IMG/VR virus record: IMGVR_UViG_3300031994_000065
Span: 1 to 64,000 of that record
From: a virus
Lineage: Duplodnaviria; Caudoviricetes
Reading direction: 5' to 3' (one strand)
DNA length: 64,000 bases
Of the stretch, positions 7,461-62,261 are shown in pieces. The translations under genes were made by a program, and so were the position numbers. The notes beneath the pieces are model-generated. The model made no database searches and was not told where the DNA came from. It saw nothing but the letters and a program-made list of their open reading frames with translations. Numbering within the stretch: position 1 is the stretch's first letter; every line of letters begins with the position of its first letter.

Positions 7461-7472
7461 TACAGCTTTGTC
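7461..7472 (-). promoter_or_regulatory. Late promoter RACA-N6-TA
   Basis: Minus strand GACA-aagctg-TA. Confidence 0.7.
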
Positions 7473-13058: not shown

Positions 13059-13070
13059 AACAAACAAGTA
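13059..13070 (+). promoter_or_regulatory. Late promoter RACA-N6-TA
   Basis: AACA-aacaag-TA before the RBS of the 13101 gene. Confidence 0.7.
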
Positions 13071-27287: not shown

Positions 27288-28334
27288 TTATCTGTTGACT
27301 TTTGCAAAATTTCTTTCCATAAGTGACCTAACTTGCGGAGCCCAGTTATAGTTATCCGGGCAGTAGACGGGGTTGATCGAACTGACCGTATCTAAGCCGC
27401 GTGCAAAATAACACTCATTGATAAGTTGCCCGAATGCATCGATATTTTCTTTTTTCGAGCTGTAACTTAATCCCATCATTCCGAAAAGGTTATTATCATT
27501 CAACGCCATAAATGAAGTCCCATGACCGCTTTCGAGTTGTGCAACAGCCAAAGCAAATACGGCATTGACTCCGTATGTGGATTCCATTTCGTAGAACACA
27601 TGACCTAACCCTTCGAGACCGGTTCCGGCAACAATCGATTCCAGTTCATCCATACTCAATCCACATCGTTCGGTTATTACGTCTGAAAGCGGATAAACCG
27701 GTGGAATAAGGTTGACTCTGTAATGTTCGATTTTGCCACTGCTAAGAAACGGTTTGACGTGTTCATAGTAATACGAACTGGGATAGTAATCGACTTTAAC
27801 GAATCGTTTTTCAATATATGCTGCTTCGCCGATGCAATAGAAGTTGCTGTTGTAGATTAACGGAACAATCTCGTATGTATTGTACTTGTCTAATTGTATC
27901 GGTTTGTCGTCTTCAGCAGGCTGTTTGTAACATATCGCGTCGAGTTCGTTTCGAGTGAATAACACGCCGACGATTTTTTCTGTCGAAGGCTTCTCAAATT
28001 TGTCAAGTTCGCAGTACGCTCTGTATTCGCCAGCTACTCCCCATTGTGGATTAATGGGGCTGACCGAGATAGCAGTACCACTAGGAAGCGTGCCAATGAG
28101 TCGAGCCGAAGAATCGGGTTCGGCATACATCGGAACATCTTGTGTAGAGACGCAAACCAAGTCTGCAAATTTGTCTATTTCTACAAGGGGTTCCGCTTCC
28201 GCAACGTTTGTCTGAACAATCTGTTCATCTGTCGCCGGATTGACTCGAGGATTGAAGAAGTTGTGATTGATTCCGGCTCCAATCAGCATCGCACCAGTTA
28301 CACAGATCGCCGCGATTAGATGTTTAGTATACAT
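27288..28334 (-). CDS. Glucosaminidase-family (GH73) peptidoglycan hydrolase with N-terminal signal/anchor and SH3 domain
   Basis: GLGHVFYEMESTYGVNAVFALAVAQLESGHGTS...NNLFG catalytic motif; VPMYAEPDSSARLIGTLPSG is SH3-like; hydrophobic N-terminus. Confidence 0.85.
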   Translation of the reverse strand: MYTKHLIAAICVTGAMLIGAGINHNFFNPRVNPATDEQIVQTNVAEAEPLVEIDKFADLVCVSTQDVPMYAEPDSSARLIGTLPSGTAISVSPINPQWGVAGEYRAYCELDKFEKPSTEKIVGVLFTRNELDAICYKQPAEDDKPIQLDKYNTYEIVPLIYNSNFYCIGEAAYIEKRFVKVDYYPSSYYYEHVKPFLSSGKIEHYRVNLIPPVYPLSDVITERCGLSMDELESIVAGTGLEGLGHVFYEMESTYGVNAVFALAVAQLESGHGTSFMALNDNNLFGMMGLSYSSKKENIDAFGQLINECYFARGLDTVSSINPVYCPDNYNWAPQVRSLMERNFAKVNR

Positions 28335-28362: not shown

Positions 28363-28374
28363 TACCACTATGTC
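28363..28374 (-). promoter_or_regulatory. Late promoter RACA-N6-TA
   Basis: Minus strand GACA-tagtgg-TA. Confidence 0.7.
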
Positions 28375-30847: not shown

Positions 30848-31027
30848 TTAGCGGCGAGTTCCACAAGTGCTATTGTCACCCATGGTCGTCACCTCCTTTC
30901 AGTAACAGGAGGGTGGTTTTACGTTTCATTTACCTCCCCCCACATTTATTAGATTTAAGTCGCAGCTACTAATTTCACTGCGTCTTATACCTATATAATA
31001 TATATTTTCGATTCTAAGATATGTCTA
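30848..31027 (-). other. Small early transcription unit carrying only two micro-ORFs (30876-30929, 17 aa; 30848-30883, 11 aa)
   Basis: TAGACA-N17-TATATATTAT at 31027-30995; RBS GGGGGAGG and AAAGGAGGTG; terminator at 30778-30822. Confidence 0.5.
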
Positions 31028-32414
31028 AATCGATTTCTCCAGTTCTACTGACAGAAATACCTTCAATTGTCGATTCCAAAACCGTTTTGGTTCTGTAGAA
31101 TGTGATTCTCCGTACAGGCATCTTCGGCAATTTTCTTTCTCTGGAACGTAAGAAAATGTCAGATATATGAATGAAGTAATTCTTGTGAACATCGTTATCA
31201 AACATTTTCACCATAGTTACGATTGACTTTTCTTCGTCTCGATACACATGAACCGGGATATATATCGTATCTTTCATCTTCACTGCTACTTTGAATGCAG
31301 TATCTCGCTCAATATCGTCATTGTCTCCACATATGTAATATCCGTCTATGATGCCTCTGCGGTCCATTTCCAATACATCGTGCGCAACACTGGTTCCCTC
31401 TTTAATTGGTGGGAATCCAAAATTTTCGACCATGTTTAACAGAGCCATATCACATATCTTATTGACGATGCGATAATTGCTTAAGAATTGATGGATTTCT
31501 TCATCGGAGAAATTTCGAAAGTTTGAAGGTCTGGCTAAGAAACCGAAATCATTCATATTACTGAGATTAATTCCATTAGTAGCCCAATCTCTTGGATTTA
31601 GAAGTTCATCTTTCATTCGCCAGTCATATTCGCTAGTGAGTGGCCATTGGTCATCATCCGGTTTACTTTGTCTAATAACAAAGTCAATATCGTCACACAT
31701 CTTAGTGATTATCGGAGCATCAATATGCTTCTTGATTTCACCAAATGCATTTATTAACATATCTTTGTTAGCAACTCGCCGAATCTTTTCTAACATATTG
31801 GCGTCGTACACCGATTTTGTATAGAAAAAATTTCTGGTTATGTCGTAGCAAAGTTTCAGGTCTGTGTCATAGACGTAATCCGAAATTCTTGTGGTGTTAA
31901 ATCGTCCGTTCAGAATATAATCTTTATCGAGATAATTCTGAGCGGATTTCTTAATAGCTTGGTTTATTGCGTCATTTAATCTGTCACTAAACTGACATGA
32001 ATGATGTTGATGCGCTGGATCTACCAGTTGATTCCTGAAGATATTAGACCATTTATCAAATGTGAGCACACCTTCAGCATAATCAGTCGCGTTCATTATG
32101 ACGTGTTTTTCTTCCATTGTGATGGTTGGGGCTTCTAAGTAATCTATAGAAGACGATTCTGCTGCGATAATATCTTTATCTGCGTATGGTTTAAATGCCG
32201 AATATTTCTTCAGTTTGACTTTCATGTTGTATTGTTTGGCGAGTCTGTTTATATTCGCAGCTAATTGCTTACGCTTTTTTGGTGGGCATGTATGGAAGTA
32301 CGCAATCGCACTACGGACGTGATTTTCGTCGGGCATTGGAAAAGCTCTATCTTCCGGAAGACCGAACTGATCTGCGGGGAGTTCTTTTCTTTGAGCACTA
32401 GAAAGTTTAGGCAT
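31014..32414 (-). CDS. DUF6582-like N-terminal domain protein, putative virion protein
   Basis: MPKLSSAQRKELPADQFGLPEDRAFPMPDENHVRSAIAYF is a recognisable small phage domain; late promoter upstream. Confidence 0.6.
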   Translation of the reverse strand: MPKLSSAQRKELPADQFGLPEDRAFPMPDENHVRSAIAYFHTCPPKKRKQLAANINRLAKQYNMKVKLKKYSAFKPYADKDIIAAESSSIDYLEAPTITMEEKHVIMNATDYAEGVLTFDKWSNIFRNQLVDPAHQHHSCQFSDRLNDAINQAIKKSAQNYLDKDYILNGRFNTTRISDYVYDTDLKLCYDITRNFFYTKSVYDANMLEKIRRVANKDMLINAFGEIKKHIDAPIITKMCDDIDFVIRQSKPDDDQWPLTSEYDWRMKDELLNPRDWATNGINLSNMNDFGFLARPSNFRNFSDEEIHQFLSNYRIVNKICDMALLNMVENFGFPPIKEGTSVAHDVLEMDRRGIIDGYYICGDNDDIERDTAFKVAVKMKDTIYIPVHVYRDEEKSIVTMVKMFDNDVHKNYFIHISDIFLRSRERKLPKMPVRRITFYRTKTVLESTIEGISVSRTGEIDLDIS

Positions 32415-32431: not shown

Positions 32432-32443
32432 TAGTGCTTTGTC
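32432..32443 (-). promoter_or_regulatory. Late promoter RACA-N6-TA
   Basis: Minus strand GACA-aagcac-TA. Confidence 0.7.
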
Positions 32444-34385: not shown

Positions 34386-36671
34386 TCAGATTGAAATCAT
34401 CGGTACGGTTTTGTGATGCCACGATTCGTGTTCTTTGCGTTTGCAGTGTGGGCATTCGTTTTTTATAATACCGGTATAACCACAGACCGGGTCGCGGTCG
34501 ACAGGGTGGTTCACACTGAAATATCCCATATTTGCATCGTGCATGGCTCGTACAAGTTTTTCAAAAGCTTCTACATTTTGGAGAGGATCCCCATTGTACT
34601 CAATATAGCTTATCGCGCCAGCATCACATTTTTCATGGTATGGTGCTTCGATACGAATTTTATCGATAGCTCGTATCTTATAATACACAGGAACATGGAA
34701 ACTGTTCGTGATGTACAATCTATCGGTGACACCACGTATGATTCCATAATCTTTGCGATTCGCTTTTTGAAATGTATTTGCTGTCCCTTCGGCTGGAGTT
34801 GAAAAGGTTGACCAATTCATTTTTTCTTCAACTTTAAACTTGTCGGTTTTGTCACGAAGATGTTGGACGATTTCCAATCCGAACCGTTGCGAATCCTCAT
34901 TCTCTCCATGATGTTTTCCTGTTAATGCTATTAAAGTTTCTGCAAGACCACAGAATCCAATAGAAAGGGTAGCATTTTTCAAAACTTTTCGTATAGTATC
35001 ATTTGGCGATAATTCATCGCTTCCCATCCAAACGCCTTGACCCATCAAAAACGGAAAATTGAAAACGTGTTTATCTGCAATAATTTGAAAACGGTAAAGA
35101 AGATAATCGTGACTAAGTTGAATATAGTGATCGTATATCTCGTAGAAACGTTTTATGATCTCTTCTTGTGGTGCGTTGTTTCCAAGTTGACGTTTTGCTT
35201 CGAGTGCAAATTTTGGAAGATTAAGAGTCACAAAACTAAAATTTCCTCTTCCACCAGTTTCTTCAGGTCCATTCACATTTCCGATAACACGGGTACGGCA
35301 TCCCATCGTTGCAGCGTATGTATTATAATTTCCTGGTTTATAATACTTCAAGTTAAAAGTGGCATCACACGATACAAAGTTCGGGTACAACCTCTTAGCA
35401 CTCACTTCACATGCACGCTTAAATAAGTCGTAATTTGGATCGCCTGGGTTGAAATTGATTCCTGATTTAATCTGAAAAATCGAAATTGGAAATAGTGGAG
35501 ATTCTCCCTTTCCCATTCCAGCATCAATAGCGTTGAGAGTTTCTCTTATTGCCAATCGTCCCTCTGGAGAAGTATCCATACCAAAGTTGATAGAACTGAA
35601 CGGAACTTGCCCGCCTGACCTAGCGTGTAAGCTATTAAAATTATACACCATTGCTTCCATAGCTTGACGTGTCTCTTCTTCAGTGGCATCTTTTGCTATT
35701 TCATAAATTGAATGAAGACCATCCCATTCGTTTCGCTCGACTTCCATGAAAACTTTACAGAAAACTCTCCATATTTCTTCTATGGTTTCCCAATAATCAC
35801 TAGAATTCTTAATGTCTTTATCTTCGACGTAATGTATCTTTGTTCTATCGAATTCTTCTTTGACTTCTTTACTAACCGTGTGCTTGTCGTACATGTTCGA
35901 TGTCACAAATTGTCCAAATTCAACCGTTTTAGATATAATTTCTTTCACGAATGTTTTTCTGATCCCTTCAGCCATCGCATAATCTTCTGCATTTAGTGAC
36001 TGGCCTCCGAAACAGTCGTTCTGGTCTGATTGAATTGCCACACATGCTAAAGCTGCATATGATCGAATAGAGCCTGGTTCTCTTATATGACCATGACCTG
36101 TTGAAAACCCACCGTGAAACAGTTTCAGTAGATCAATTTGACAACAATTCAACGTTATCATTGAGAAATCGTTATCGTGTTCATGAATGAAATGTTGACG
36201 ATGTGCTTCAGCAAATTCTTTTGGTTGGGTATTAAGCGCGAATTCTTTTGCTCCATCTGATCCAAGTTTAAGCATTATGCCCATTGGACCATCAGTGTTA
36301 ATATTTGCATTTTCCCTCTTATCGTCCATCGCTGAGGCATCAGTAAACAAAATGTCTTTATAAGTTTGCATGAGATTCTTCTTCGATTCCCGACGAAGCA
36401 TATGTTTATATCTGTAACAAATATACTTCTTGGCTATCTCGAAAAATCCGTGTTGCATAAGACGACGTTCCACGACATCTTGAATATCTTCGACTGATAT
36501 TTCAGTACGATCACCAATATCGGACTCTATCTGTTCAATGATATTCTCAAGATCGCGTTCGGTCATTTGTTCGACGGAAGCGTTGTTAGCTCCAACAATC
36601 GCTTTGTAAATTTTCGATCGGTCGTATGAAACCAACGAACCGTCGCGTTTGATAACGCGTTCAAGATTCAT
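34386..36671 (-). CDS. nrdD: Anaerobic (class III) ribonucleoside-triphosphate reductase with ATP cone, lacking the C-terminal glycyl-radical segment
   Basis: VIKRDG ATP cone, TLNCCQID, ARSGGQVPFSSINFG, MGCRTR, GNFSFVTLNL, STPAEG, C-terminal CxxC pair; no RITGY-type motif. Confidence 0.93.
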   Translation of the reverse strand: MNLERVIKRDGSLVSYDRSKIYKAIVGANNASVEQMTERDLENIIEQIESDIGDRTEISVEDIQDVVERRLMQHGFFEIAKKYICYRYKHMLRRESKKNLMQTYKDILFTDASAMDDKRENANINTDGPMGIMLKLGSDGAKEFALNTQPKEFAEAHRQHFIHEHDNDFSMITLNCCQIDLLKLFHGGFSTGHGHIREPGSIRSYAALACVAIQSDQNDCFGGQSLNAEDYAMAEGIRKTFVKEIISKTVEFGQFVTSNMYDKHTVSKEVKEEFDRTKIHYVEDKDIKNSSDYWETIEEIWRVFCKVFMEVERNEWDGLHSIYEIAKDATEEETRQAMEAMVYNFNSLHARSGGQVPFSSINFGMDTSPEGRLAIRETLNAIDAGMGKGESPLFPISIFQIKSGINFNPGDPNYDLFKRACEVSAKRLYPNFVSCDATFNLKYYKPGNYNTYAATMGCRTRVIGNVNGPEETGGRGNFSFVTLNLPKFALEAKRQLGNNAPQEEIIKRFYEIYDHYIQLSHDYLLYRFQIIADKHVFNFPFLMGQGVWMGSDELSPNDTIRKVLKNATLSIGFCGLAETLIALTGKHHGENEDSQRFGLEIVQHLRDKTDKFKVEEKMNWSTFSTPAEGTANTFQKANRKDYGIIRGVTDRLYITNSFHVPVYYKIRAIDKIRIEAPYHEKCDAGAISYIEYNGDPLQNVEAFEKLVRAMHDANMGYFSVNHPVDRDPVCGYTGIIKNECPHCKRKEHESWHHKTVPMISI

Positions 36672-45102: not shown

Positions 45103-45359
45103 TTGTCTGCAAACAAGATTTTCAAACTAAGCGAATCCGCCCTTATGGAATTGAATCAACTACATACTCAGAACTTCGTAAAGGTGATTTGTTTATGGTT
45201 AAAAGCTCAGGAACTAATTGTGTTTGTAAGGCCGAAGAAGATGCAACTAAATATCCTGATGGTTCGATAAGCGTCAAACACGGTTTCGTAGTTCTTTCAA
45301 TTATTGGCAAAGATTCTATTAAGGAGGTTACAACCTATGGCGAAAGAGATAGAGCGTAA
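45093..45359 (+). CDS. Hypothetical protein
   Basis: 88-aa ORF overlapping both neighbours; RBS gaggatg. Confidence 0.55.
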   Translation: MGLIVCKQDFQTKRIRPYGIESTTYSELRKGDLFMVKSSGTNCVCKAEEDATKYPDGSISVKHGFVVLSIIGKDSIKEVTTYGERDRA

Positions 45360-45993
45360 ATACCTCGTCGACAAAGAAAAATTTGATGCATCGTTGCGTA
45401 CTGGAATTTGGACTCATTATCCATCAAAACAAGGATACATCAAAATCGACACTGCTTCTGAACCTAATATTTCTCAGGTGAGAGTTTCTATTACGGGTCA
45501 TGAAGAATATGAAACACTCAAGAAATTCGATCCCGAAGGGAAAGTTTACCGAGCTCCGAGAGCATATCTCAACATAAAAGGACCAGTGTTCGATAGTTGT
45601 GTTCGTGATGAATTTGAGTACGAAATTCCTGTTGAAGAAGCGTTTGAGATTTTCAGTCGTTGTGCACACAAGATTTTCAAGGAACGTTATAAAGCGACGA
45701 TAGATGGAATCGAGTGGGCGGTTGATGTATTCAAGCTCGATAATGATGGTTTGATAATCGCAGAGACGGAAATTGAGTCACCAAAAGTTGTGATAAAGAA
45801 ACCTGAATGGATTGGAAAAGAAGTCACATATCTCCCACAATATTACAACGTCTCGCTTTCACAGTATCCTTATAACTGTTATGATTTCGAGAAATTGTCG
45901 AAAATAGAGAACAAAAAAATTGCGAAGGTTAAATGTAGTTCTTGCCCTCGCTATCGGAAATGTGGAAGTTCTAATTACGACGAGCCGCGCTAA
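45337..45993 (+). CDS. CYTH-domain (triphosphate tunnel metalloenzyme) protein
   Basis: MAKEIERKYLV ExExK motif, QGYI, RDEFEYEIP, KERY, WAVDVF...AETE, PEWIGKEVT. Confidence 0.88.
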   Translation: MAKEIERKYLVDKEKFDASLRTGIWTHYPSKQGYIKIDTASEPNISQVRVSITGHEEYETLKKFDPEGKVYRAPRAYLNIKGPVFDSCVRDEFEYEIPVEEAFEIFSRCAHKIFKERYKATIDGIEWAVDVFKLDNDGLIIAETEIESPKVVIKKPEWIGKEVTYLPQYYNVSLSQYPYNCYDFEKLSKIENKKIAKVKCSSCPRYRKCGSSNYDEPR

Positions 45994-46005: not shown

Positions 46006-46040
46006 AGAGGTACCGAGATTTGAATCTCTCGGTACCTCTT
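46006..46040. terminator. Bidirectional terminator
   Basis: agaggtaccgaga / tctcggtacctct inverted repeat between convergent genes. Confidence 0.75.
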
Positions 46041-47079
46041 ATAACACGAGTTTTGCTTGACGAATATCGATATGGTCTCTTGTGGTTCCCAAATCTTTTT
46101 CTCCCGGATATTGGTTGTAGAACAGATTGATTGACTTGCAGTATTCTCTCACCGGTTTGATCGATTTGAAAAACTCGATGGGTTTATCGGTATCTGCGTA
46201 TATATTCAAATTGAGATTATCGATAAATCCAATATGAAGTATTCGTTTGATTACGCCGAGAAATCCAGCTCCATTAACCGCCGAGTATAATTTGTTTGTT
46301 TTATCCGCATTATTGAGATGATAATAACACCCAAGAATGTCGAATATTCCCTCCGTGATATTGCAATCAATGTCATTTGCCATCAAGTCATACATTCCAG
46401 GAATTATGTAGAGTTTAGAACCCCAGTTACCACTATTCTTAAATACGGGGTAATTGATGTATCTATGCTCGTTTTTCTTAGTATCCCGGAATATGATGTA
46501 AGAACTGTCAGCGGATAAAAATCCGACATAGTCATCTTCGAGTTTTTGAGCTACACGTATCGGCAGGTTAACTCCGAAACCATTGATGTCAAGAAAGTCT
46601 TTGAGTGAAAGTATAATCTTCAGATTGACACAATCTTGATATGTCAATTCAATACCGAGACGATTTTCGATGTATTTAAGTTTGTCAATGTGTCTACAAG
46701 TTTTGTAGAATGGAACGATACTCTTTTTGGAACCATGAATTATATAATGAGATTCAGTTCGAGCTTTCGAATCCATAAATCTCTTATTATGATTCCAAAC
46801 CGCACTTAACAAACTCAAATCTGTTACCCCAGCGGCACGTAAGAAATCCGAATTCACCCAGTGACCTTCGCTACAGCTCGAAAAACAGTAGTAAGATACT
46901 GGTTTGTTTCCTTCGATATTAACGTAACAATGCACACTGTCTTGATGTTTGAGGCTGTCGCCACATATTGGGCAACGGATTATCACGTGAGTATGAGCAC
47001 TGTTTTCTTTGGCAAACGGAGTCTTCAGAAGAACTTGTTTAAGTTTCGCAAGAGCATTAATCTCGTTTATATCAATCAT
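46039..47079 (-). CDS. DNA primase (Zn finger plus TOPRIM)
   Basis: RCPICGDS...HCY...YCF Zn finger; ITEGIFDIL and YADTD TOPRIM motifs; KDLG. Confidence 0.85.
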   Translation of the reverse strand: MIDINEINALAKLKQVLLKTPFAKENSAHTHVIIRCPICGDSLKHQDSVHCYVNIEGNKPVSYYCFSSCSEGHWVNSDFLRAAGVTDLSLLSAVWNHNKRFMDSKARTESHYIIHGSKKSIVPFYKTCRHIDKLKYIENRLGIELTYQDCVNLKIILSLKDFLDINGFGVNLPIRVAQKLEDDYVGFLSADSSYIIFRDTKKNEHRYINYPVFKNSGNWGSKLYIIPGMYDLMANDIDCNITEGIFDILGCYYHLNNADKTNKLYSAVNGAGFLGVIKRILHIGFIDNLNLNIYADTDKPIEFFKSIKPVREYCKSINLFYNQYPGEKDLGTTRDHIDIRQAKLVL

Positions 47080-47156
47080 AATAATACCTCCTTTAGAAAA
47101 ACGTGTAAAAACGGGTAAAAAGGAACAGCAAACGTAGTTCACTGCTCCCCTAACGC

Positions 47157-48734
47157 CTAAATGTTGTTGACGAATTTGAGATATTCTGCCGCGAGTATTT
47201 CGTTCTCGATCTCGATTGGTTCATCGAGCATGTCTTGCATGTCATAATCGACATAAGTCCAATTCGTATTGATTATCTTGCTGAGAAGTGTAATCACCGG
47301 ACTCCCGTTCTTTTCATCGAGTAATGAGGGATATTTCTTTTCCATGAGTTCCTGATATACCGATGACGAGGTTACCTTCTCAAGAAATTTTGAATTACGA
47401 ATGACTCTAGCCGACGATTTTCCATGAGCATTCGCGGTTATCAACTGGTCCATGTATATATTGCCGTTCGCTTCCAGCATTTTCTTCATGATGACCATGA
47501 GCTGAATGTACTGCTCCCTTTTGACGAAGTTCAAATCACGAAACCCACCGAACCATTTCGCGAAGAAGTAAAAGACCAATTCTTTGGAAAGATTGTTGAA
47601 ATCGTGATGCTCTTTGTAGAATTCGAGTTCCTTATCTGTGATCTTTATCTTCATTTTCGCCTTGATGCGTTCGAGTGTGTCGGCGATATTGACTTGAGAG
47701 AACAGAATCATGAAAGTATCAATTTTCGTCGTGTACATTTCCATCTTATCAAGTCCGGACAATCCTTCGGGTTCTTTTTCCGTAGATACCGCAAGGAAAT
47801 CCATTTTCAAGTCTTCTTTAGAATGGAATGCAAGTTGATACTTCAAAACTACCGAATTGTAGCTGATGATGTTCCCGTTGAACCGGTAGCTGAACACGGT
47901 GTCGGTTATAAGATTCTTGTGGAACAAATCTTCGATGAATGTTTCCACTGAAGAACCTAACGCCTCATGCTTTCCGTACATCGCACGATCCGGTTTTGAA
48001 TAGCTATTGACGCGAGACGCAATTGTGTGATGAAGTTTGCCGAGTATATTGACATCCTCTATGAGAATTGGATTTACAAACAGCGGCTCGAAATATTTGT
48101 ACAGATTCAATTTCGCTTCATCTTTGTTATAGAACGTCTTTATGTAATGCATGATAACGGGAATCGCAAATTTGATTGCCACCGAAATTCTCATCAATAT
48201 CTCCGCGTGATGTTCATTGAATTGCATTACCGGAGCATAAGATTTGTTTGATGTCTTTTTCGTTTTGACATCGGTGGTTAAATCGACCCGATAATTATCC
48301 ATGCTCATTCTCTTAATCTTTTCGCACATAGAATCAGAGAACAAGATTTTTTGGATTGCTTTTATCATCGATTCGCGTTTCAATTCGGTGATGTGTTTGG
48401 CGTCAATCATATATTTCAGCTTCATGTACGCCATTATGAGCTCTTTATCTTCGTCGTAGAACTTCAGAAAATAGTTGATATACAACGAAATCACATCGAG
48501 CTGTTTGTAGTACGCTTCCTTCAGACTTATGTCAAAGAAATTGTACTCGTGAATTATGTCGCGTCCGAATATCTTATCAAACGCGATGAAAAGAACCTTG
48601 CCTTGATGTCCCGCGTAGATATCTTGGTCTTCAGGTTTCCACAAGTCTACCGGGATGACACCTTCTGGAACCGGCATAAGTATTGCTTCACCGATTACAT
48701 TGTTTTTGCGCTCAGCACGCTTAATTAACTTCAT
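47157..48734 (-). CDS. Sigma-like promoter-specificity subunit of non-virion RNAP (AR9 gp226-like)
   Basis: IAFDKIFGRDII matches IAFDKLFGRDDI, and ASRV...D, IISY..VV.K and EGLSGLDKME match AR9 gp226 as I recall it; two genes from the chaperonin, as in AR9 (gp226/gp228). Confidence 0.75.
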   Translation of the reverse strand: MKLIKRAERKNNVIGEAILMPVPEGVIPVDLWKPEDQDIYAGHQGKVLFIAFDKIFGRDIIHEYNFFDISLKEAYYKQLDVISLYINYFLKFYDEDKELIMAYMKLKYMIDAKHITELKRESMIKAIQKILFSDSMCEKIKRMSMDNYRVDLTTDVKTKKTSNKSYAPVMQFNEHHAEILMRISVAIKFAIPVIMHYIKTFYNKDEAKLNLYKYFEPLFVNPILIEDVNILGKLHHTIASRVNSYSKPDRAMYGKHEALGSSVETFIEDLFHKNLITDTVFSYRFNGNIISYNSVVLKYQLAFHSKEDLKMDFLAVSTEKEPEGLSGLDKMEMYTTKIDTFMILFSQVNIADTLERIKAKMKIKITDKELEFYKEHHDFNNLSKELVFYFFAKWFGGFRDLNFVKREQYIQLMVIMKKMLEANGNIYMDQLITANAHGKSSARVIRNSKFLEKVTSSSVYQELMEKKYPSLLDEKNGSPVITLLSKIINTNWTYVDYDMQDMLDEPIEIENEILAAEYLKFVNNI

Positions 48735-48769: not shown

Positions 48770-48779
48770 ATAATATATA
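48770..48779 (-). promoter_or_regulatory. Early promoter motif TATATATTAT
   Basis: Exact motif upstream of the sigma-like gene. Confidence 0.65.
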
Positions 48780-48786
48780 CCCGAAT

Positions 48787-49602
48787 TTATTTTCGACGAG
48801 AACTTCCTCCGATTTTAGGTTTTCCAGTGATTTTCCCGCGGGAATTTCGATGTTCATTAGAGCCAGAAGTGTGAGTAAGTCCTTTAATGGTTCTGACCGC
48901 AGAGCTGATTTTCTTTTTGACCGCTTTCTTGGTTCTAGAATAATCCGTCTCCCTCACTTTTCGTGTAAGTGAAGTCGCGTCCATTTTCTTACCACGTTCA
49001 CCAGACAATTCGGACATTATCGAATCGAATGTTCTAATGGTTGCTGCAAAATTCTCTTGATTAAATTCACGAGAATTTCGTTTGACAAAGTACCGCTGGG
49101 AGAATTGCGTCTGCGTCATTATATGATGAATCGCGTAGAATATGCTTTTATCCCACAATAACAACAAATTTGGATTCTTTTCGTTGGGTTTATTTCCAAG
49201 AACTTCATTTCCAAGTTTATCGCTTAACCAACTGATCAACAAATTGTTTTTATTGTACGCGTAAGCATATGTGAAAACGAAACTGGGACAGTTTGAGAAG
49301 AATTCAACTTGCCAATCCTTCAAAGACATGTGAGTTTTCTCGGGGTCTTCCACAGTTTCAAAAAAGTGAATAACTACGTCGTAATCCATACTTCTGGTGT
49401 CTGACGGCACAAGAAGATGATAGTAAAACGACGTATCACTTTCCCGGAATATAGTAACTGGTATTTTCTTTTTAAGCTTCTTTGTAACCCCTTCGTAACG
49501 TCTTTCGAATCCATAACGTACTGCTCCGAGAGCTAAAGCTGAAGAACTTCCGCCGCTGGGATTCTTGTAGAAGTTGCGAAGGGTTATTGGTCCCTTTTCC
49601 AC
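48787..49602 (-). CDS. Hypothetical protein
   Basis: 271 aa, GTG start after AAGGAG; NCPSFVFTYAY core and a basic C-terminus. Confidence 0.65.
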   Translation of the reverse strand: MEKGPITLRNFYKNPSGGSSSALALGAVRYGFERRYEGVTKKLKKKIPVTIFRESDTSFYYHLLVPSDTRSMDYDVVIHFFETVEDPEKTHMSLKDWQVEFFSNCPSFVFTYAYAYNKNNLLISWLSDKLGNEVLGNKPNEKNPNLLLLWDKSIFYAIHHIMTQTQFSQRYFVKRNSREFNQENFAATIRTFDSIMSELSGERGKKMDATSLTRKVRETDYSRTKKAVKKKISSAVRTIKGLTHTSGSNEHRNSRGKITGKPKIGGSSRRK

Positions 49603-49705: not shown

Positions 49706-51475
49706 TTATTTGCTGTCTGTGTGTTCAACCGTTGGAATCTGAGAAATGTATTGATTTGCCGTCATAAGAGTCAGACAAATGTTAATTGCGCCTTTAAGAA
49801 TTTCGATGTCAGTTTGTGCTGAATTGATTATATTTTCGGAAAATTCTCCGGTTATCAAATCATAACATTTATCATCTCCGGCAATACATATCATTCCAAT
49901 CTCTTTCAATTTTTCTTTCAGGTTGTCATCAAGCACGTCGTAACCGTCTGAATCATATTTATTCGCAAATACTTCCATGAGAGTATCAAAGAATGCATTA
50001 GCGATTGCTTTATAAGCAGATTCGAGTTTGTCGTCGAGATTATTAGTTCGTGCCATGAGACAATTGGCCGCATAACAAATGATGACATTGCCACCGATAT
50101 TATATCCGTGAGTTGCAACTGATTCACAAGCTCTTGTAGCATCTTCTGCCGCATCAAACTTGAGAGTCATTTCAATTTCGTTTTCTGCTCCTACGGTAAC
50201 TTCGGTGATTCTACGTCTGAGACGTTGTATTCTGTTTCGCAATGCAACTAATGAAGCTGATTGGATTCTGCGGTTGAGATTTTCTCCGACTTCACGTTCA
50301 TATTCGGCAGAAAGATTATAGAACACCAATGACATCCGTTCTTTATCCATTCTCGGATAACCATCGATAATGGTATATTCGTTACGGTATGTCTCGATAG
50401 AATCAACTTTGCCTATTGCACGTTTAAGAATTTCATCGTCGAAGTGTTCTTCAGATGTAACTACGTCAACCATTTTATTGAAATCGGACGCAGTTATCGG
50501 ATTCGAACCACAGAGCAATGCGAAGTCCATATACTCATTACGTTGAAATGCGTTTACATTCAAGCATCTCATGTAGCGAATGGACAAATGTTTTTTCTGT
50601 TTTGCTCGCATAAGTTGCAAATCCATATCGACATCTCGTTTTACCATATCCAAGAAGTTCTGACTATAACTCGGAGCTACAATTATAACTTCTTTTGGGT
50701 TATGGATATCTTCATCTTGTTGATGCGCCAGCTGTTCGAGACGATGAATCATATTGTAGTGGTACGGTTCTATTGCCATATCAAAACAGATGATGTAGAC
50801 ATCTCTTCCAACAAAACCAGATGGTTGATTGTGGAAGATATTGTCGATCATATAGTAATGATTTGCCTTATAACCGTTGATATGTTTAACGGTTGTTTCA
50901 GTAGACCAGATCGGGGAACGTCTTACATTAAACGCGCTGTTCGGTTCTTTCTTGTAAGCCTCTTTAATCATTTCGGCAAACTTAGTATCGCCGTTAGTGG
51001 AGATGTAAGCAGTTTTATACATCACATCAGGAAGCTCTTTTTCCGATGGATGTTTTGCGTGTTCTTGAATGAATTCGACGATATTGTTTATCGCAGTTTT
51101 GTAAGTTTCGTTTAGTTCTCTTGGTCTTATGAACTTTCCATTGTTTGTTTTGGTAAGCCATTTAGCGAATTTCCATGCCGCTACGACCGCTGATGATGAA
51201 CCGTCACCAACAGTTGCAACCATTCTATGGCTGATAGTTTGAATGACATTCATCACATTATTTGCGAAAATGTCCTCGGGTGCAAAGCGAATACGTTGCA
51301 GTGTATGGAATCCGTCCTTAGACGCCACTAACGGACCCATCTCTTCGATAATCGAAGTGTTCGCACAAGGTCCAAGAGTTTTACTTACCGTTTTGCCGGC
51401 AAACTCAAGAACCTCGAGAACCATATTCTTATAATCGGTTGCACTGATGACATTACTTTTGGTAATGGCCTTCAT
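49706..51475 (-). CDS. GroEL-like phage chaperonin
   Basis: KTLGP, SKDGFHT, VGDGSSSA nucleotide-binding motif, DAAEDATRA, GGNV, INSAQTDIEIL. Confidence 0.9.
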   Translation of the reverse strand: MKAITKSNVISATDYKNMVLEVLEFAGKTVSKTLGPCANTSIIEEMGPLVASKDGFHTLQRIRFAPEDIFANNVMNVIQTISHRMVATVGDGSSSAVVAAWKFAKWLTKTNNGKFIRPRELNETYKTAINNIVEFIQEHAKHPSEKELPDVMYKTAYISTNGDTKFAEMIKEAYKKEPNSAFNVRRSPIWSTETTVKHINGYKANHYYMIDNIFHNQPSGFVGRDVYIICFDMAIEPYHYNMIHRLEQLAHQQDEDIHNPKEVIIVAPSYSQNFLDMVKRDVDMDLQLMRAKQKKHLSIRYMRCLNVNAFQRNEYMDFALLCGSNPITASDFNKMVDVVTSEEHFDDEILKRAIGKVDSIETYRNEYTIIDGYPRMDKERMSLVFYNLSAEYEREVGENLNRRIQSASLVALRNRIQRLRRRITEVTVGAENEIEMTLKFDAAEDATRACESVATHGYNIGGNVIICYAANCLMARTNNLDDKLESAYKAIANAFFDTLMEVFANKYDSDGYDVLDDNLKEKLKEIGMICIAGDDKCYDLITGEFSENIINSAQTDIEILKGAINICLTLMTANQYISQIPTVEHTDSK

Positions 51476-51889
51476 TTAGTTATTACCTCCTTTAATGAGT
51501 TTATCATCGGGAAGATTATTGACTAATACATCGTAAATCTCACGATAAGTCAAATCTCCCCAGAACTTTTCGGAAGCTACCATTATTGACGGTGCCGATT
51601 TAGGGTTATCGCGCATAATCTTGAACTGATCATTCAATATGGCAACGATGAATTTTTCAGGGCTTTCATAAGTCCAATCTATCGCTGTCGAATCTTCAGT
51701 CCGTGCGACCCATTCTTCGAGAGTTTCAATAGTTTCATTTTCGTTTTCTTCAGTAATTTTGACGAAAACGATAGAACCATCGAAGCGTTTAACCATTTTG
51801 AGATAATTTCTCGCAGGCCAAATCGTACGACGAACAGGCTGACCCTTCAAAAGACACTCAACAGCTCTTCCGTAACCAAAAGTGTTCAT
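51476..51889 (-). CDS. DUF2829/Tad2-like protein with C-terminal extension
   Basis: FGYGRAVECLLKGQPVRRTIW...WVARTEDSTAIDW matches the FxxAlxxLkxGxxVxRxxW...WxxsqxDxlAxDW pattern; ATG at 51889 after AGGAGG. Confidence 0.65.
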   Translation of the reverse strand: MNTFGYGRAVECLLKGQPVRRTIWPARNYLKMVKRFDGSIVFVKITEENENETIETLEEWVARTEDSTAIDWTYESPEKFIVAILNDQFKIMRDNPKSAPSIMVASEKFWGDLTYREIYDVLVNNLPDDKLIKGGNN

Positions 51890-52129
51890 TTTTGATTCCT
51901 CCTTTATAATCTGTGCGAAAGACGTTTCATTTATATATTCTCTCCTGAAAAAGACGCGCACAAGGCAGACATTATCATGCGGAGCTTCCGAAATCCCATG
52001 TTGTCTGCCTATGTGGTGGTCACTAAGACCGTCCCCTTTAAAGATCGATAAACCACAATGATTACCCAGCAAGAATCAGGATCATTGCTCCTGATTCTTT
52101 TTACATATTTTGTATACTCGATGTTCTTT

Positions 52130-55474: not shown

Positions 55475-55948
55475 TTAATGAGTTTTAAGCTGCGCTTTAG
55501 CTTTACTGATTGCATTTTTAACAGCTGCAGAATTCTTACCATGATTGCTGACGCTAGGAAGTGAACTCGTGGGTTTAGCACTCAGAGATTTTTTCGCCTT
55601 CAGTAACGCTTCATTATGGTATTTCTTATACAACTCTTTTTCAAGTTGAGATTCCATACGCCACAACGTCAAAAGCTTTTTAAACTTAGGATCTTTACGT
55701 TGACGTGCGATGGTATAAACTGCGGTGCGAGTAGCACCTTTAAGTTTCGCCTTTTTATCCAATTTGATGATAGTCTTTTCCGTCACGATGTCAGCACGAA
55801 TCAGTTCATCGGTAAAACGAGAATCTTCACAAATGGATGCAGCTTCTTCCGAACTCAATCCTTCAAGAAGAACTGCTTCAGTTATAAGAGTGGAGTCCGA
55901 TTTAGAGATAATAGGTTCTCCACCACCAAATCCTTTGAAGAATTCCAT
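55475..55948 (-). CDS. Putative virion structural protein
   Basis: ITEAVLLEG motif; late promoter GACA-tgacac-TA at 55972-55983. Confidence 0.6.
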   Translation of the reverse strand: MEFFKGFGGGEPIISKSDSTLITEAVLLEGLSSEEAASICEDSRFTDELIRADIVTEKTIIKLDKKAKLKGATRTAVYTIARQRKDPKFKKLLTLWRMESQLEKELYKKYHNEALLKAKKSLSAKPTSSLPSVSNHGKNSAAVKNAISKAKAQLKTH

Positions 55949-55971: not shown

Positions 55972-55983
55972 TAGTGTCATGTC
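55972..55983 (-). promoter_or_regulatory. Late promoter RACA-N6-TA
   Basis: Minus strand GACA-tgacac-TA. Confidence 0.7.
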
Positions 55984-57759: not shown

Positions 57760-59361
57760 ATGACAGAAAAAGAGTTCAGAGCTCTGAAGGAAGACCTCAA
57801 AGGTAGCGTCGGTAAGGTCAAACATCACGTCAAACGAGTAACGGATTCTATAAGTCAAAAGCTGAAAGATGGACGAGCTAAAATTAATGCCAAATATGAA
57901 AAGGGCGTTGTGTCCACTCAGAAGAATCCGATTGTTGATAAAATGGCAGACCTTACTGCTGGATTAACCGAAAAAGATGAAGAAGAGCTCTTGAAAAACG
58001 AGGACGATACATTCAGGAAAATCCGTAAGGTAATCGTGAATGGTTCCGTTATATTAACTCCGTTTATCATCGGCATTCCCATTAAGATGATTGATACTGC
58101 GGTTCAAAACAATGTCGATATGAAGAATGCTGAAAAGTATGATAAAATCTATGAGAGAGAAATTCTTTGGACTGAAGACGAGATCAAGAAACGTAAGAAG
58201 GAAGGTAAAGATACCGAAGACTTACAGAAATATCTTGCCAATTTGAAAAAGTCCAGAGCTAAAACTCAAGCTCATATTCAGAAACTCAAAGAATCTGAGG
58301 CGGAGACTTCCAAGAAGGATAAAGCTGCTAAAGAATCTATGCGATTTATCACTGAGGGAAATAATCTTAATCCATTCGTAAGATTTACCCTCATGCAAAG
58401 AGAAGATTTCCGTTCCGATGACGATTTCGATAACGCACTGATCAGCACATTTGAACAACTTCTTTACGGAGCTACTCAAAGTGTTGATTATTACGAGAAA
58501 TTTGGATTTGATAAAGAAACTCCAGTCACAGAATCGTCAGATACCGAACCTGTAGTTGATACAGGTAAACGTAAGTCCGCTTATATCATCACTAACGGTA
58601 TCATGATGGAATCACTTTCTAAAGACAAAGAACTGATGAAAGCTTTCGAAGACCATTCTGGTTATGGTTATCAGATTAGTTTCAATAACGGTTCTTCGGA
58701 CAAATACCAATTATACGGGTTTGATTATGAGAAACTCAATTCGTCTAATACTTCAGGAATCGATTCCAAAGTGAAATCTCTTGTTGAATATATTAATGGG
58801 AAAATTGCTTATACCGATTGCAAACTGGTCATCGGCGGAAAAGATTCTTATCCTGTAATAACACTCGAGGGAATAACTCAAACCGCACAAGATGTGGTTC
58901 GAAAAGCTGTTCATACAGCTCGTAATGTTCTTCCTGAAGAAAGCCCGGTTAAAAATGCTGAACGCGCATCTGAACCTCTTGATGATGCTGTAAATAAGAT
59001 CATCAACGGCGCAAGAGATGCTCTCAGTCATGATAAGCGTGAAGAAATCATCCAAGGCAAGTACAGATTTAAACTTGTTCGTATTATTGCGAAATGTATT
59101 GCGTATGGTGGATTGGCTGTATTAATTCACCCTGCAGCTGCAGCTATCGCGTTCTTAGGAAAAATGGCGTACGATAGACACATCGACCGTAATGAACGTA
59201 GTGCAATAGTACACGATTTGGAATCTGAACTCGAAATTTGTAAAGAGAAAATCAAAGATGCTGAAGCTAAAGGTGATAACGAAAACAAATATAAACTCAT
59301 GCGTATTCGTAAATCTCTTGAGACTGAGGTCGGAAGAATCAAACTTCACCTTGATAAGTAG
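57760..59361 (+). CDS. Putative head/prohead protein
   Basis: 533 aa with KES, TEG, TES, MES and LEG motifs; late promoter; upstream of the capsid gene. Confidence 0.55.
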   Translation: MTEKEFRALKEDLKGSVGKVKHHVKRVTDSISQKLKDGRAKINAKYEKGVVSTQKNPIVDKMADLTAGLTEKDEEELLKNEDDTFRKIRKVIVNGSVILTPFIIGIPIKMIDTAVQNNVDMKNAEKYDKIYEREILWTEDEIKKRKKEGKDTEDLQKYLANLKKSRAKTQAHIQKLKESEAETSKKDKAAKESMRFITEGNNLNPFVRFTLMQREDFRSDDDFDNALISTFEQLLYGATQSVDYYEKFGFDKETPVTESSDTEPVVDTGKRKSAYIITNGIMMESLSKDKELMKAFEDHSGYGYQISFNNGSSDKYQLYGFDYEKLNSSNTSGIDSKVKSLVEYINGKIAYTDCKLVIGGKDSYPVITLEGITQTAQDVVRKAVHTARNVLPEESPVKNAERASEPLDDAVNKIINGARDALSHDKREEIIQGKYRFKLVRIIAKCIAYGGLAVLIHPAAAAIAFLGKMAYDRHIDRNERSAIVHDLESELEICKEKIKDAEAKGDNENKYKLMRIRKSLETEVGRIKLHLDK

Positions 59362-59372
59362 AGGTGACAGAT

Positions 59373-60374
59373 ATGAGTTTTAGAGCATTTTTCAACAGTA
59401 TTCTTATGGAAGCTAAGGATGATAAACCCACTGACTATTCCAAAGAAGAACCCAAAGATGATGACAAAGAAGAAGACAAGGATACTGATAAAGACGACGA
59501 TAAAAAGCCTGACGCTGGAGCGGATACAAAAACTAATGATAACAAAGATGATGATTCCACAGATTATACTGTGGAAGACGAGACGATCGGTGATGATAAT
59601 GAGGAAACCACAGATTACACCGCCGATGTTCCAGATGATGAAGATACTGGCGAAGACAAACCTGATGCCGGAACGGATACTGGTGGTACAGATGATAAAC
59701 CTACAGATTATTCTGATAATGGCGATGACGACCCGACTAATGATACTGCTGACGCTGGCGATGAAGACTCTGGAGAAAATGCTGATGACTCTGGTGGTGG
59801 AAATGAAGAAACCACAGATTATTCGGCTGGCACAGATGACGCAATGGGTGATGATGCCGATAGTGAAGGTGAAGACTCAGGAGACGATGATAAAGAAGGC
59901 AGTGATTCTGAAGAAGGAAGCTCTGATGATTCATCTAAAGAAGACAAACTTCGTAAATTCTATCTTCTAAAAGATTTCCGTGAGTTACAAGCGTTCATCA
60001 AAGATGCAGCGGATAAGATCACCGAGAAGAAACGTAATTCTTTTGAAGAAAAACAAATCGATATGCAAGTGGTCAATAACTTTAGCAAACTCGAAGATGT
60101 CGTTGGTGATTATATGGTTTTCAAGTTTGATGAAGATGATTACACCACTGCTCTATATAACTACAGAAGATTTGTCATCGCAATTGATATAAATCTGGAA
60201 TTACTTCAGAAGGTCAATGAAATCAATCAAAGGAATCGTGACAGTAAATCTTCTAATACCACAAATGAAAACAATACTGATTCCACGAAGAAACAATCTA
60301 AGCCTTCTAAATCTAAGGCTAAAACGAAGAAAACTTCAGAGAAAGACTCTGACGACGGTGAAGAACCGTCATAA
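59373..60374 (+). CDS. Very acidic scaffold/prohead-core-like protein with five TDY[ST] repeats
   Basis: KPTDYS, DSTDYT, ETTDYT, KPTDYS, ETTDYS in a D/E-rich region; immediately upstream of the MCP. Confidence 0.55.
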   Translation: MSFRAFFNSILMEAKDDKPTDYSKEEPKDDDKEEDKDTDKDDDKKPDAGADTKTNDNKDDDSTDYTVEDETIGDDNEETTDYTADVPDDEDTGEDKPDAGTDTGGTDDKPTDYSDNGDDDPTNDTADAGDEDSGENADDSGGGNEETTDYSAGTDDAMGDDADSEGEDSGDDDKEGSDSEEGSSDDSSKEDKLRKFYLLKDFRELQAFIKDAADKITEKKRNSFEEKQIDMQVVNNFSKLEDVVGDYMVFKFDEDDYTTALYNYRRFVIAIDINLELLQKVNEINQRNRDSKSSNTTNENNTDSTKKQSKPSKSKAKTKKTSEKDSDDGEEPS

Positions 60375-60376
60375 GC

Positions 60377-60388
60377 AACAAGTAGTTA
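60377..60388 (+). promoter_or_regulatory. Late promoter RACA-N6-TA
   Basis: AACA-agtagt-TA upstream of the MCP. Confidence 0.72.
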
Positions 60389-60416
60389 AAATTCACAGAG
60401 AAAGGATGTGCTTATA

Positions 60417-62261
60417 ATGTTCGAACAAAACGACATTATAGCGAGACAGGGTGCTGTAGGTCTGTTTCAACCTAATGTGGATACATCGTTCACTGATGGT
60501 TTAAAAGCGGCTATGGAAGCTGCTAGGGACACCACTCATTATAGCCCGATTCAGGATTTTAAGAACATTCTTCAGGACGATCAAGCTTTTGAAAGTTATC
60601 GTGATATTATGTTTAGCGATGTGCTTGGAGATCAGCCGATGGCAGAATCTTCCACGTATTCCTACCTTTCTGCTAATACGGAGAATAATCTTGATTTGGG
60701 ATATATGGCTCTTCACAACGAGAAGTTGGATCAGCTCATTGAAAATACCAGACAAGCGCTTTACGAAGCAAGTACTGTCGGTCAGTTGGAACCTATCGTT
60801 GCTCTCACTCTTCCGCTTATGAAAAAGGCGTACATTAAGAGTGCGTACAAAGATGCTATTCCTACATTGACTGCGGATAAGATGCTTATCAATATCGGTT
60901 ATGAAAGAGACTTCTTGAAAGACCGTGAAGGTAAGAAATATTATCTGCCTGATATTTTCTATCCTGAGAATGAAGATACATATAAAGAGGTTCTGAAAGG
61001 AACTGTCGGTAAGCCTATTTCAGATAAATTCTATCCTGAAGCTGACGGCGCCGCGTTGCCTTTTGCTGAACTGAATCTTCTTACAGAATCTGGTGGTAGT
61101 CTTGCAACTCGTGACGTTCTTGGTTACGATCTTATGATTGACCAAGTTGTCATGACCGTTCCTGTCGCCAAAACTGCAGACGACGCTATCGACGGCAAAA
61201 CTTTTGATGTGTCTGGATTCAAAGATCTGACCATTAAAGGTTTGAAGATTAAACCGCATTATCAAACTGCAACATTTACTGGCGAAGTTCGTCAGAATTC
61301 TTTGATTAAAAAGAACGACACTGCAACCGTTGATACTATTACCGGAACGATTGAGTTCTATTCTGGTAAAGTTTCGATTGCATGTACTGCCGGCTTGATA
61401 AAGAAAGTTCATTTCACCGGTCATTTGTCAAGTGCTAACAACGATGTCGGAACTGAGCTTGACCGCGAACGTAGAAATGAGCAGATTCCGATTCCTGAAC
61501 AGGAAAGATTGAATACTGGTCTCACTGTCGAAAAGATTCGCGACGAAAAGATGCTCAGTAATATCGACGTTACGGTTGAAACTGTCAGCAAACTGTCCGA
61601 CACCTGCTATCAATTCAAAGATACTAATACGAAGCTGTTCCTCGAAGATAGCTTCCAGACTGCCGTTGAAGACGTTAACGGCAGCCGCAATCCCATGGGT
61701 TACACGATTCAGTTGGCGGATTCTATTAAGTTTGAACTCCAAAAACCTGACCGTTACCTCTTGCCGCAATCCGAATGGCGTACGACTCAGCTTCGTTACT
61801 ACCTCGAGAAATATATTATCCAATTCGTGCAGAAACTTAAGAATAGTAATATCATGGTTGTTATGGTTGCAAACCCGACAATGATTAGCTATCTGCAGGA
61901 TATTCAATGGGTAGTCGATGAACGTACGAAAGTCGGTGGCGTCAAACTCGATTATAAATTTGGTGTTACGACAATCGCGGGCACTCGCGTTCATGTCATC
62001 GCCACGATGAAAGAAACCTTTGCGAAAGGATTCCGTCTGATTGGTTATCCGCTCACTCAGGAATTCATCACGTATCGTAAATACGATTACAGTTTCTTCA
62101 TCGAAAACAACTATCGCAATATGAACACTCCTCTCATTCCGAACGTCATGGTTGCTCAGCGTTATCTCAACTATGAGTATTTGCCGTTGCAATCTGAAAT
62201 GTACTTCGACGAAGTTCGTAATGACGCTCAAATTCGTATGCAAGGTTATGCTATATGCTGA
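60417..62261 (+). CDS. Major capsid protein precursor (phiKZ/AR9-type)
   Basis: ~614 aa; N-terminal propeptide ending near LYEA followed by GQLEPIVALTLPLMKK; EQERLNTGLTVEKIRD; next to protease and scaffold; own late promoter. Confidence 0.72.
   Translation: MFEQNDIIARQGAVGLFQPNVDTSFTDGLKAAMEAARDTTHYSPIQDFKNILQDDQAFESYRDIMFSDVLGDQPMAESSTYSYLSANTENNLDLGYMALHNEKLDQLIENTRQALYEASTVGQLEPIVALTLPLMKKAYIKSAYKDAIPTLTADKMLINIGYERDFLKDREGKKYYLPDIFYPENEDTYKEVLKGTVGKPISDKFYPEADGAALPFAELNLLTESGGSLATRDVLGYDLMIDQVVMTVPVAKTADDAIDGKTFDVSGFKDLTIKGLKIKPHYQTATFTGEVRQNSLIKKNDTATVDTITGTIEFYSGKVSIACTAGLIKKVHFTGHLSSANNDVGTELDRERRNEQIPIPEQERLNTGLTVEKIRDEKMLSNIDVTVETVSKLSDTCYQFKDTNTKLFLEDSFQTAVEDVNGSRNPMGYTIQLADSIKFELQKPDRYLLPQSEWRTTQLRYYLEKYIIQFVQKLKNSNIMVVMVANPTMISYLQDIQWVVDERTKVGGVKLDYKFGVTTIAGTRVHVIATMKETFAKGFRLIGYPLTQEFITYRKYDYSFFIENNYRNMNTPLIPNVMVAQRYLNYEYLPLQSEMYFDEVRNDAQIRMQGYAIC

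Follow-up and report, generated by a model that had tools for sequence, protein, structure and literature searches.

The window examined here, a 64,000-nucleotide stretch comprising positions 1 to 64,000 of the IMG/VR virus record IMGVR_UViG_3300031994_000065 (Duplodnaviria; Caudoviricetes), encodes on its minus strand, at 47157 to 48734, a 525-amino acid homolog of gp226. In AR9/PBS1, gp226 is the promoter-specificity (sigma-like) subunit of the non-virion multisubunit RNA polymerase (nvRNAP; PDB 7S01, 7UM0, and 7UM1; PMC9209446, PMC5449584). We consider it probable that the window protein is the sigma-like subunit of an AR9-type nvRNAP from an uncultured jumbo phage with thymine DNA, that its position equivalent to AR9 V206 is relaxed, and that tolerance of thymine comes from a pocket remodeled as a whole. 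The initial annotation of this DNA, made from sequence, had drawn attention to an Ala in place of V206 and had suggested that the smaller side chain lets thymine into the pocket that AR9 reserves for uracil. The evidence does not establish Ala as the determinant, and this residue appears not to be a special switch, because position 206 varies freely in the clade of relatives that make thymidylate; it would be a single state of a relaxed site.

A gp226 homolog and its late promoters

Homology of the window protein is detectable only by tblastn against phage genomes and by a family profile; the sequence alone retrieves nothing by phmmer against PDB sequences, nor in scans of Pfam and PHROGs. When 50,697 phage records were searched by tblastn, AR9/PBS1-type Bacillus phages were the sole matches, with 23-25% identity across 83-85% of the protein. 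Pairwise BLASTP against AR9 gp226 gives an E-value of 1e-16 over residues 43-476. A profile of 77 homologs, all of them from uncultured sequences with no cultured phage (AR9 included) in the build, matches PDB 7S01 chain A with an E-value of 9.8e-56, aligning profile positions 21-497 with chain residues 9-462. The AlphaFold (AF2) model of the window protein, with a predicted local distance difference test score (pLDDT) of 85.9, has 7s01_A (AR9 gp226) as its best Foldseek match (E-value 2.7e-17), followed by phiKZ gp68. VIA-align superposes the model on 7S01_A with a Z-score of 27.8 and 455 of 463 residues aligned; the root-mean-square deviation (rmsd) of 12.9 is high because of domain orientation, and the C-terminal domain alone gives a Z-score of 16.6 against gp226 with an rmsd of 2.9. 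The gene order GroEL-gp227-gp226-primase is the same here as in AR9. By sequence, fold, context and cognate promoter, therefore, the window protein is a true gp226 homolog, and the naming of the gene in the initial annotation is borne out by the BLASTP, profile and structural scores together with synteny.

The cognate promoter was examined by scoring every motif consisting of a 4-mer, six free positions and a 2-mer in the 75 nucleotides upstream of genes. GACA-N6-TA ranks first in this genome, with 15 occurrences observed against 0.8 expected, and AACA-N6-TA is also enriched. As a positive control, the same scan applied to AR9 puts the published AACA-N6-TA on top, and GACA is not enriched there. 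Sites of the form RACA-N6-TAA lie 12-75 nucleotides upstream of a same-strand start in 21 of 25 cases (p 2.7e-29), and the base that follows TA is A in 21 of 23 sites, although the search had left that position free. Over the same number of sites, the non-template base at -11 is G in 13, A in six, C in four and T in none. Genome-wide counts show enrichment of neither AACA-N6-TA nor GACA-N6-TA, and only position relative to gene starts is informative. The scan, together with its AR9 control, thus establishes that the late promoter is of the AR9 type, with a template strand that reads T/U at -10, G at -9, T/U at -8 and mostly C at -11; the GACA-type promoters mentioned in the initial annotation are the top gapped motif upstream of genes.

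Individual promoters of this type include AACA-N6-TA(A) at 60377 to 60388 (plus strand), 31 nucleotides upstream of the major capsid protein gene (60408-62261), and AACA-N6-TA(A) at 13059 to 13070 (plus strand), 42 nucleotides upstream of the gene at 13101-14702. On the minus strand, GACA-N6-TA(A) is found at 7461 to 7472, 28363 to 28374, 32432 to 32443, and 55972 to 55983, which is 35, 40, 29, and 35 nucleotides upstream of the genes at 6010-7437, 27288-28334, 31014-32414, and 55475-55948, respectively. Across the whole genome and on both strands, AACA-N6-TA is depleted (25 copies versus 46.7 +/- 7.0 in shuffles, every shuffle having at least 25). Its depletion overall and its concentration upstream of genes suggest selection against spurious intragenic late promoters.

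The base at -11 calls for separate comment. According to the AR9 paper, T is rejected at this position because the base has its C5 and C6 atoms packed against the backbone of the DNA itself, which means that no protein substitution could relieve the clash. A template C, as in GACA, would avoid a methyl group there. We offer this as an idea and not as a rule, since the preference is seen in some relatives only: among the genomes compared, G is preferred at -11 in G000 (the genome of the window), G001, G003, and G008, and AACA is used in G010, G013, G018, and G023. The residue at position 206 and the -11 base show no correlation among these genomes. The preference for G over A instead tracks clade, being shared across the branch that unites the window protein with its sister group, in which Lys always occupies position 210. 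G018 carries this Lys too, yet uses AACA promoters.

Position 206 and the surrounding pocket

Residues 240-253 of the window protein read SRVNSYSKPDRAMY. AR9 gp226, translated from KU878088, reads SRVFETKYSDVVIW and contains S203, D204, V205, V206, I207, and W208 in the numbering of the literature; the AR9 string given in the initial annotation matches this translation. Ala251, encoded by the GCG codon at 47982 to 47984 (minus strand), falls opposite V206 in four alignments, namely BLASTP, MAFFT with 30 sequences, MAFFT with ~125 sequences, and a profile hidden Markov model alignment to 7S01_A. The flanking columns (N/D at 204, I/L/M at 207, W/Y/F at 208) are conserved and anchor the alignment. 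In the model, D249 stands just before a helix spanning residues 250-258, of which Ala251 is the second residue. By this helix and by column conservation, residues 249-258 (D-R-A-M-Y-G-K-H-E-A; 47961 to 47990, minus strand) correspond to helix 2.1bis of AR9, N-cap Asp included. The arrangement fits the AR9 paper, in which the main-chain amide nitrogens of V206 and I207 bond the -10 uracil. The original placement of Ala at V206 therefore holds, supported by four agreeing alignments and conserved flanks, and none of the four puts a Val or Ile of the window protein there.

In the clade of gp226 homologs from phages that encode a thymidylate synthase (ThyA or ThyX), which we will refer to as the Thy-encoding clade, column 206 contains Val in 26 sequences, Ala in 19, Ile in 11, Gly in 11, Leu in 10, Lys in 10, Thr in nine, Ser in eight, and Pro in seven, as well as others. 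It is the most variable position of the helix, whose neighboring columns are conserved. Promoters do not follow this variation. For instance, xACA-N6-TA is a top upstream motif in Thy-encoding genomes whose residue at the site is Val (G008, G010), Ile (G003), Lys (G013), or Gly (G023), and the -10 base is the same across genomes with A, I, V, K, or G. If these Val-carrying phages have thymine DNA, then Val does not exclude T in their enzymes. G018, which has Val and a dUTPase but neither ThyA nor ThyX, shows a weaker enrichment of AACA-N6-TA (19 versus 4.1 expected). No correlation is found between the residue at 206 and the type of thymidylate synthase. A further record, IMGVR_UViG_3300025000_000053 (249,853 bp; loci L011 and L015), carries a pair of distinct genes of the gp226 family, one at 232-240 kb and the other at 5-12 kb, and position 206 is Pro in each; paralogy or a chimeric or concatenated assembly is possible.

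The stated geometry of the AR9 pocket points in the same direction. The AR9 paper places C5 of the base 3.9 A from the C-beta of V206, a distance at which a methyl group would clash, and the only substitution tested, V206G, makes the AR9 enzyme accept T. Ala keeps the C-beta and so, by this geometry, would still clash. The window protein differs from AR9 at other pocket positions as well. The five cultured phages, namely the Bacillus phages AR9 and BpSp, Listeria phage LPJP1, Staphylococcus phage S6, and Yersinia phage phiR1-37, share the signature T200-x-Y202-x-D204-x-V206-I207-W208-x-[Y/F]210-[L/I]211, whereas the window protein has Y, K, D, A, M, Y, K, and H at positions 200, 202, 204, 206, 207, 208, 210, and 211. 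Tested for this signature with its invariant V206 and aromatic 210, the window protein lacks it (A251, K255) and thus lies outside the uracil-specific subgroup. The aromatic residue at 210, which in AR9 stacks on -9G, is replaced by Lys. The claim that Ala is what lets thymine in is accordingly not upheld, given a hypervariable site, the same -10 base with V, I, K, or G, a retained C-beta and differences elsewhere in the pocket. The other half of that proposal, an AR9-like enzyme with GACA promoters working on DNA that probably contains thymine, fares better.

The pocket in AR9 is completed by the beta-N subunit (gp105). Homologs of gp105 occur in all five relatives searched (G001, G003, G008, G010, and G023). 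Of these, G001, G003, and G023 retain R363, the residue that in AR9 stacks on the -10U.

Thymine or uracil in the phage DNA

Base chemistry cannot be read from assembled sequence, and the genes carried by the record and its relatives are the evidence that bears on it. The source record, an IMG/VR fragment, is 81,294 bp long and has a completeness of about 32%. A search of this 81-kb record for ThyA, ThyX, and dUTPase found none of them, which is uninformative at that completeness. Among the marker genes that the initial annotation had proposed to look for, dUTPase, thymidylate synthase and an inhibitor of uracil-DNA glycosylase were thus not found on the record; nearly all relatives do have the thymidylate synthase. 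An IMG/VR scan returned 136 loci of the gp226 family, many of them located on contigs with a length near 250 kb. Among 34 uncultured related records, 30 have either ThyA (10) or ThyX (20), never both, and one or the other is present in 26 of the 27 related records that are at least 90% complete. A dUTPase is found in 15 of 36 records searched, AR9 not being among the 15. None of the five cultured phages has ThyA, ThyX, or dUTPase; for four of them (AR9, BpSp, S6, and phiR1-37), uracil DNA has been reported (PMC7598289). Only these five lineages and close isolates are cultured phages with a detectable gp226 homolog. Fisher p values are 2e-4 and 3e-5, figures that overstate independence because the genomes are related.

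The nearest near-complete relative, G001, has a sigma subunit 59% identical to the window protein and Ala at the site; closer relatives (64-77% identical) are on contigs of 134 kb and 221 kb. The ThyX of G001 passes the equivalog cutoff of TIGR02170 (NCBIfam) and carries the RHR-X7-S motif, and its own relatives comprise one 95% twin, all others being at most 51% identical. By synteny with G001, the ThyX locus would fall ~14 kb past the end of the contig that holds the window. G001 also has a second, divergent ThyX-like gene at 58781-59734 (L097:18781-19734; 317 aa), which at 92.5 bits is barely over the TIGR02170 cutoff, is without the RHR motif and may not be a thymidylate synthase; it sits at a rearrangement breakpoint that the window record does not have.

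In a maximum-likelihood tree, the five cultured phages fall on one side, and the window protein is nested well inside the clan of Thy-encoding phages. This phage is therefore likely to have thymine DNA, bracketed as it is by relatives that nearly always encode ThyA or ThyX. A tblastn search with AR9 Ugi in G000 and seven relatives gave no match, which is weak evidence, since Ugi is small and fast-evolving and BLAST may miss it. Scattered weak matches were all that tblastn returned in eight uncultured genomes for the gp151 deoxyribonucleotidase, dCMP deaminase, and kinases. Two genomes deserve mention in their own right. G018 (L047 record; 200,990 bp, with a completeness rating of 100%) stands alone among the complete uncultured relatives in having neither ThyA nor ThyX. 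It has Val at 206, AACA promoters, a dUTPase, and a dCMP-deaminase homolog, and of all genomes in the set it is the one whose DNA chemistry is hardest to predict. LPJP1 (L105, MZ422438) is predicted to be a uracil-DNA phage, because it combines the full V206/aromatic-210 signature with the lack of ThyA, ThyX, and dUTPase; its gp226 homolog is annotated as two coding sequences.

Several points weigh against a relaxed site in a thymine-reading AR9-type pocket. In the alignment, K375 of beta-N is not conserved, and Y210 of gp226 is replaced by Lys, so the pocket may differ from that of AR9 more than assumed. Reading of the template strand is itself carried over from AR9. No thymidylate or dUTP marker was found on the record, and it is by phylogenetic bracketing that thymine DNA is the likelier chemistry. 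ThyA homologs can be hydroxymethylases, and gene content is no proof of base composition. Lastly, within the subclade of the window protein (at least 57% identity), the site is mostly A, S, or G, with a single P, a single K and two V, and a local preference for a small side chain could be at work there.

That last point also favors the view that Ala251 is an adaptation in which a side chain smaller than that of Val makes room for thymine in the -10 pocket, residue 251 being the main determinant of thymine tolerance. The effect of V206G in AR9 and the invariance of Val in the five cultured phages agree with it. We nevertheless think this unlikely, as neither the promoter nor its -10 base differs in Thy-encoding relatives that have Val, Ile, Leu, or Lys at the site, the atom named as lying 3.9 A from C5 is the C-beta that Ala retains, and K, P, or V occurs in close relatives of the window protein. 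The retained C-beta can be turned around: were the phage DNA to contain uracil, or another pyrimidine without a 5-methyl group, Ala would still exclude T and the thymidylate synthases of the relatives would be uninformative. The 81-kb fragment, on which no thyA, thyX, or dUTPase was found, and the conservation of AR9-like genome organization and promoters would suit such a phage. This too is improbable, decidedly so in view of the ~32% completeness of the fragment and the expected ThyX locus off its end, the thymidylate synthases in all but one of the 27 relatives that are at least 90% complete, among which the window protein nests, and the absence of the cultured-phage signature (T200, Y202, V206, Y/F210, L/I211); that no Ugi homolog was found adds weakly to the case.

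A different kind of departure from AR9 would be a subunit that no longer reads flipped template bases but recognizes DNA that is double-stranded or belongs to the non-template strand, a mode proposed for phiKZ gp68, in which case residue 251 would face no base. The loss of Y210, which stacks on -9G, and of beta-N K375 is compatible with this, as is a position 206 that behaves as a solvent-exposed, unconstrained site, and gp68 is the second-best structural match. The promoter, however, matches the AR9 geometry of xACA-N6-TA exactly, and its -10, -9, and -8 positions are invariant; conservation extends to the N-cap, the equivalents of I207 and W208, the S245/Y246 groove and R363 of beta-N; and in sequence and fold the protein is far nearer gp226 (Z 27.8) than gp68 (Z about 12). 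Recognition of the gp68 kind is accordingly very unlikely here.

The reading that we prefer, an AR9-type sigma subunit with a relaxed position 206, would work as follows. The gene would be transcribed early from an AR9-type virion-RNAP promoter, the core of which is observed and the timing of which is presumed, and its product would join a split beta/beta' core that is present in relatives and not on the fragment. The holoenzyme would then drive late transcription from the [G>A]ACA-N6-TAA promoters, whose motif and placement are observed. If AR9 is a guide, template bases -11 to -8 would enter a pocket that the N-terminus of helix 250-258 forms together with beta-N. The phage DNA being most likely thymine DNA, the template base at -10 would be T. 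The uracil-specific signature appears confined to the five cultured phages tested and position 206 appears unconstrained in the Thy-encoding clade, which would leave Ala251 as one among several states of a relaxed site, with tolerance of thymine belonging to the pocket as a whole.

It is possible, and we propose it only tentatively, that a large clade of ~250-kb phages, none of them cultured, runs the AR9 template-strand promoter system (gp226-type sigma, xACA-N6-TA promoters) on thymine DNA. Uracil specificity, as in AR9, S6, and phiR1-37, would then be a derived, multi-residue specialization (T200, Y202, V206, Y/F210, L/I211), T-type enzymes would tolerate the 5-methyl group at -10 whatever the residue at 206, and some lineages, including this one, would avoid the clash at -11 by a template C (GACA).

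Gene neighborhood and relation to known phages

Upstream of the sigma gene lies the syntenic homolog of AR9 gp227 (48787 to 49602, minus strand; tblastn to AR9, E-value 7e-23), a protein with homologs in eight of eight uncultured genomes tested. It is followed by a GroEL-like chaperonin, the homolog of AR9 gp228 (49706 to 51475, minus strand; tblastn E-value 6e-37, in the AR9 gene order), and the syntenic downstream neighbor is a DNA primase homolog (AR9 gp225; 46039 to 47142, minus strand; tblastn E-value 4e-26). In total, 29 of the 71 open reading frames (ORFs) of the record match AR9 and are arranged in syntenic blocks. The sequence TATATATTAT, an AR9-type early (virion RNAP) promoter core, is located 43 nucleotides upstream of the sigma gene ATG (48770 to 48779, minus strand); the same core carries an early-promoter annotation upstream of AR9 g226. 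Nine copies of this core occur on the minus strand (24968, 27210, 31002, 33250, 34092, 38014, 38879, 48777, and 55397), several of them with identical flanks.

The only AR9-type RNAP core gene found on the 81-kb fragment is a homolog of the virion-RNAP gp145; for the split beta/beta' nvRNAP core, no homolog of gp105, gp89, gp154, or gp270 was found there. The sole nucleotide-metabolism gene found on the record encodes an anaerobic ribonucleotide reductase, NrdD, with an ATP-cone (34386-36671, minus strand; E-value 2.9e-165). AR9 instead has class I NrdEF/NrdI beside the primase, and the replacement by NrdD fits an anaerobic host. Adjoining the GroEL-like gene is an ORF of 198 aa (51476-52072, minus strand) with a Tad2-like (Thoeris anti-defense 2) domain, a match to Pfam PF11195 that is barely above the cutoff (E-value 2.2e-5, 25.3 bits). 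A CYTH-domain protein is encoded at 45304-45993 (plus strand).

Relative to known systems, the window protein stands closest to AR9 gp226, with which it shares full-length homology and fold, gene order, the early promoter core, and the late geometry xACA-N6-TA, as well as the helix N-cap, the equivalents of I207 and W208, and the S245/Y246 groove. It differs in its overall sequence (23% identity), in an N-terminal extension of ~40 aa and in specific residues, V206 being replaced by Ala, Y210 by Lys, T200 by Tyr, Y202 by Lys, and L211 by His. The promoter likewise prefers G at -11 (template C) where AR9 has strictly A. AR9 is without ThyA and ThyX, whereas the relatives of the window encode them, so the substrate DNA is probably thymine. 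The homologs in S6 and its relatives, phiR1-37, BpSp, and LPJP1 belong to the same protein family, and the five cultured phages share T-x-Y-x-D-x-V-I-W-x-[Y/F]-[L/I]; the window protein lacks this motif and groups with the Thy-encoding clade. More distant is gp68 of Pseudomonas phage phiKZ (PDB 8QUE, 9RJS, and 7OGP), the sigma-like fifth subunit in the nvRNAP of a thymine-DNA jumbo phage. Its structural homology (Foldseek E-value 1.2e-6, Z about 12) is mainly in the C-terminal domain, its identity is ~10-12% with no homology detectable by sequence, and its promoters are of another type.

Reviews divide the RNAP-encoding jumbo phages into phiKZ-like phages with thymine DNA and a nucleus and AR9-like phages with uracil DNA, and the uracil-dependent promoters of the latter are believed to prevent the viral polymerase from working on host DNA (PMC7598289; PMC13282480). 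Our literature search found no paper on Thy-encoding phages of the gp226 type. A clade that has the AR9 sigma subunit and the AR9 promoter together with thymidylate synthases does not fit this two-group scheme, and it raises the questions of what stops such phages from transcribing the DNA of their hosts and by what route uracil specificity evolved. Ala alone is no evidence of a thymine switch like the engineered one in AR9. What the clade does supply is a set of natural variants, with A, G, S, K, V, or I at the very site that is critical in AR9.

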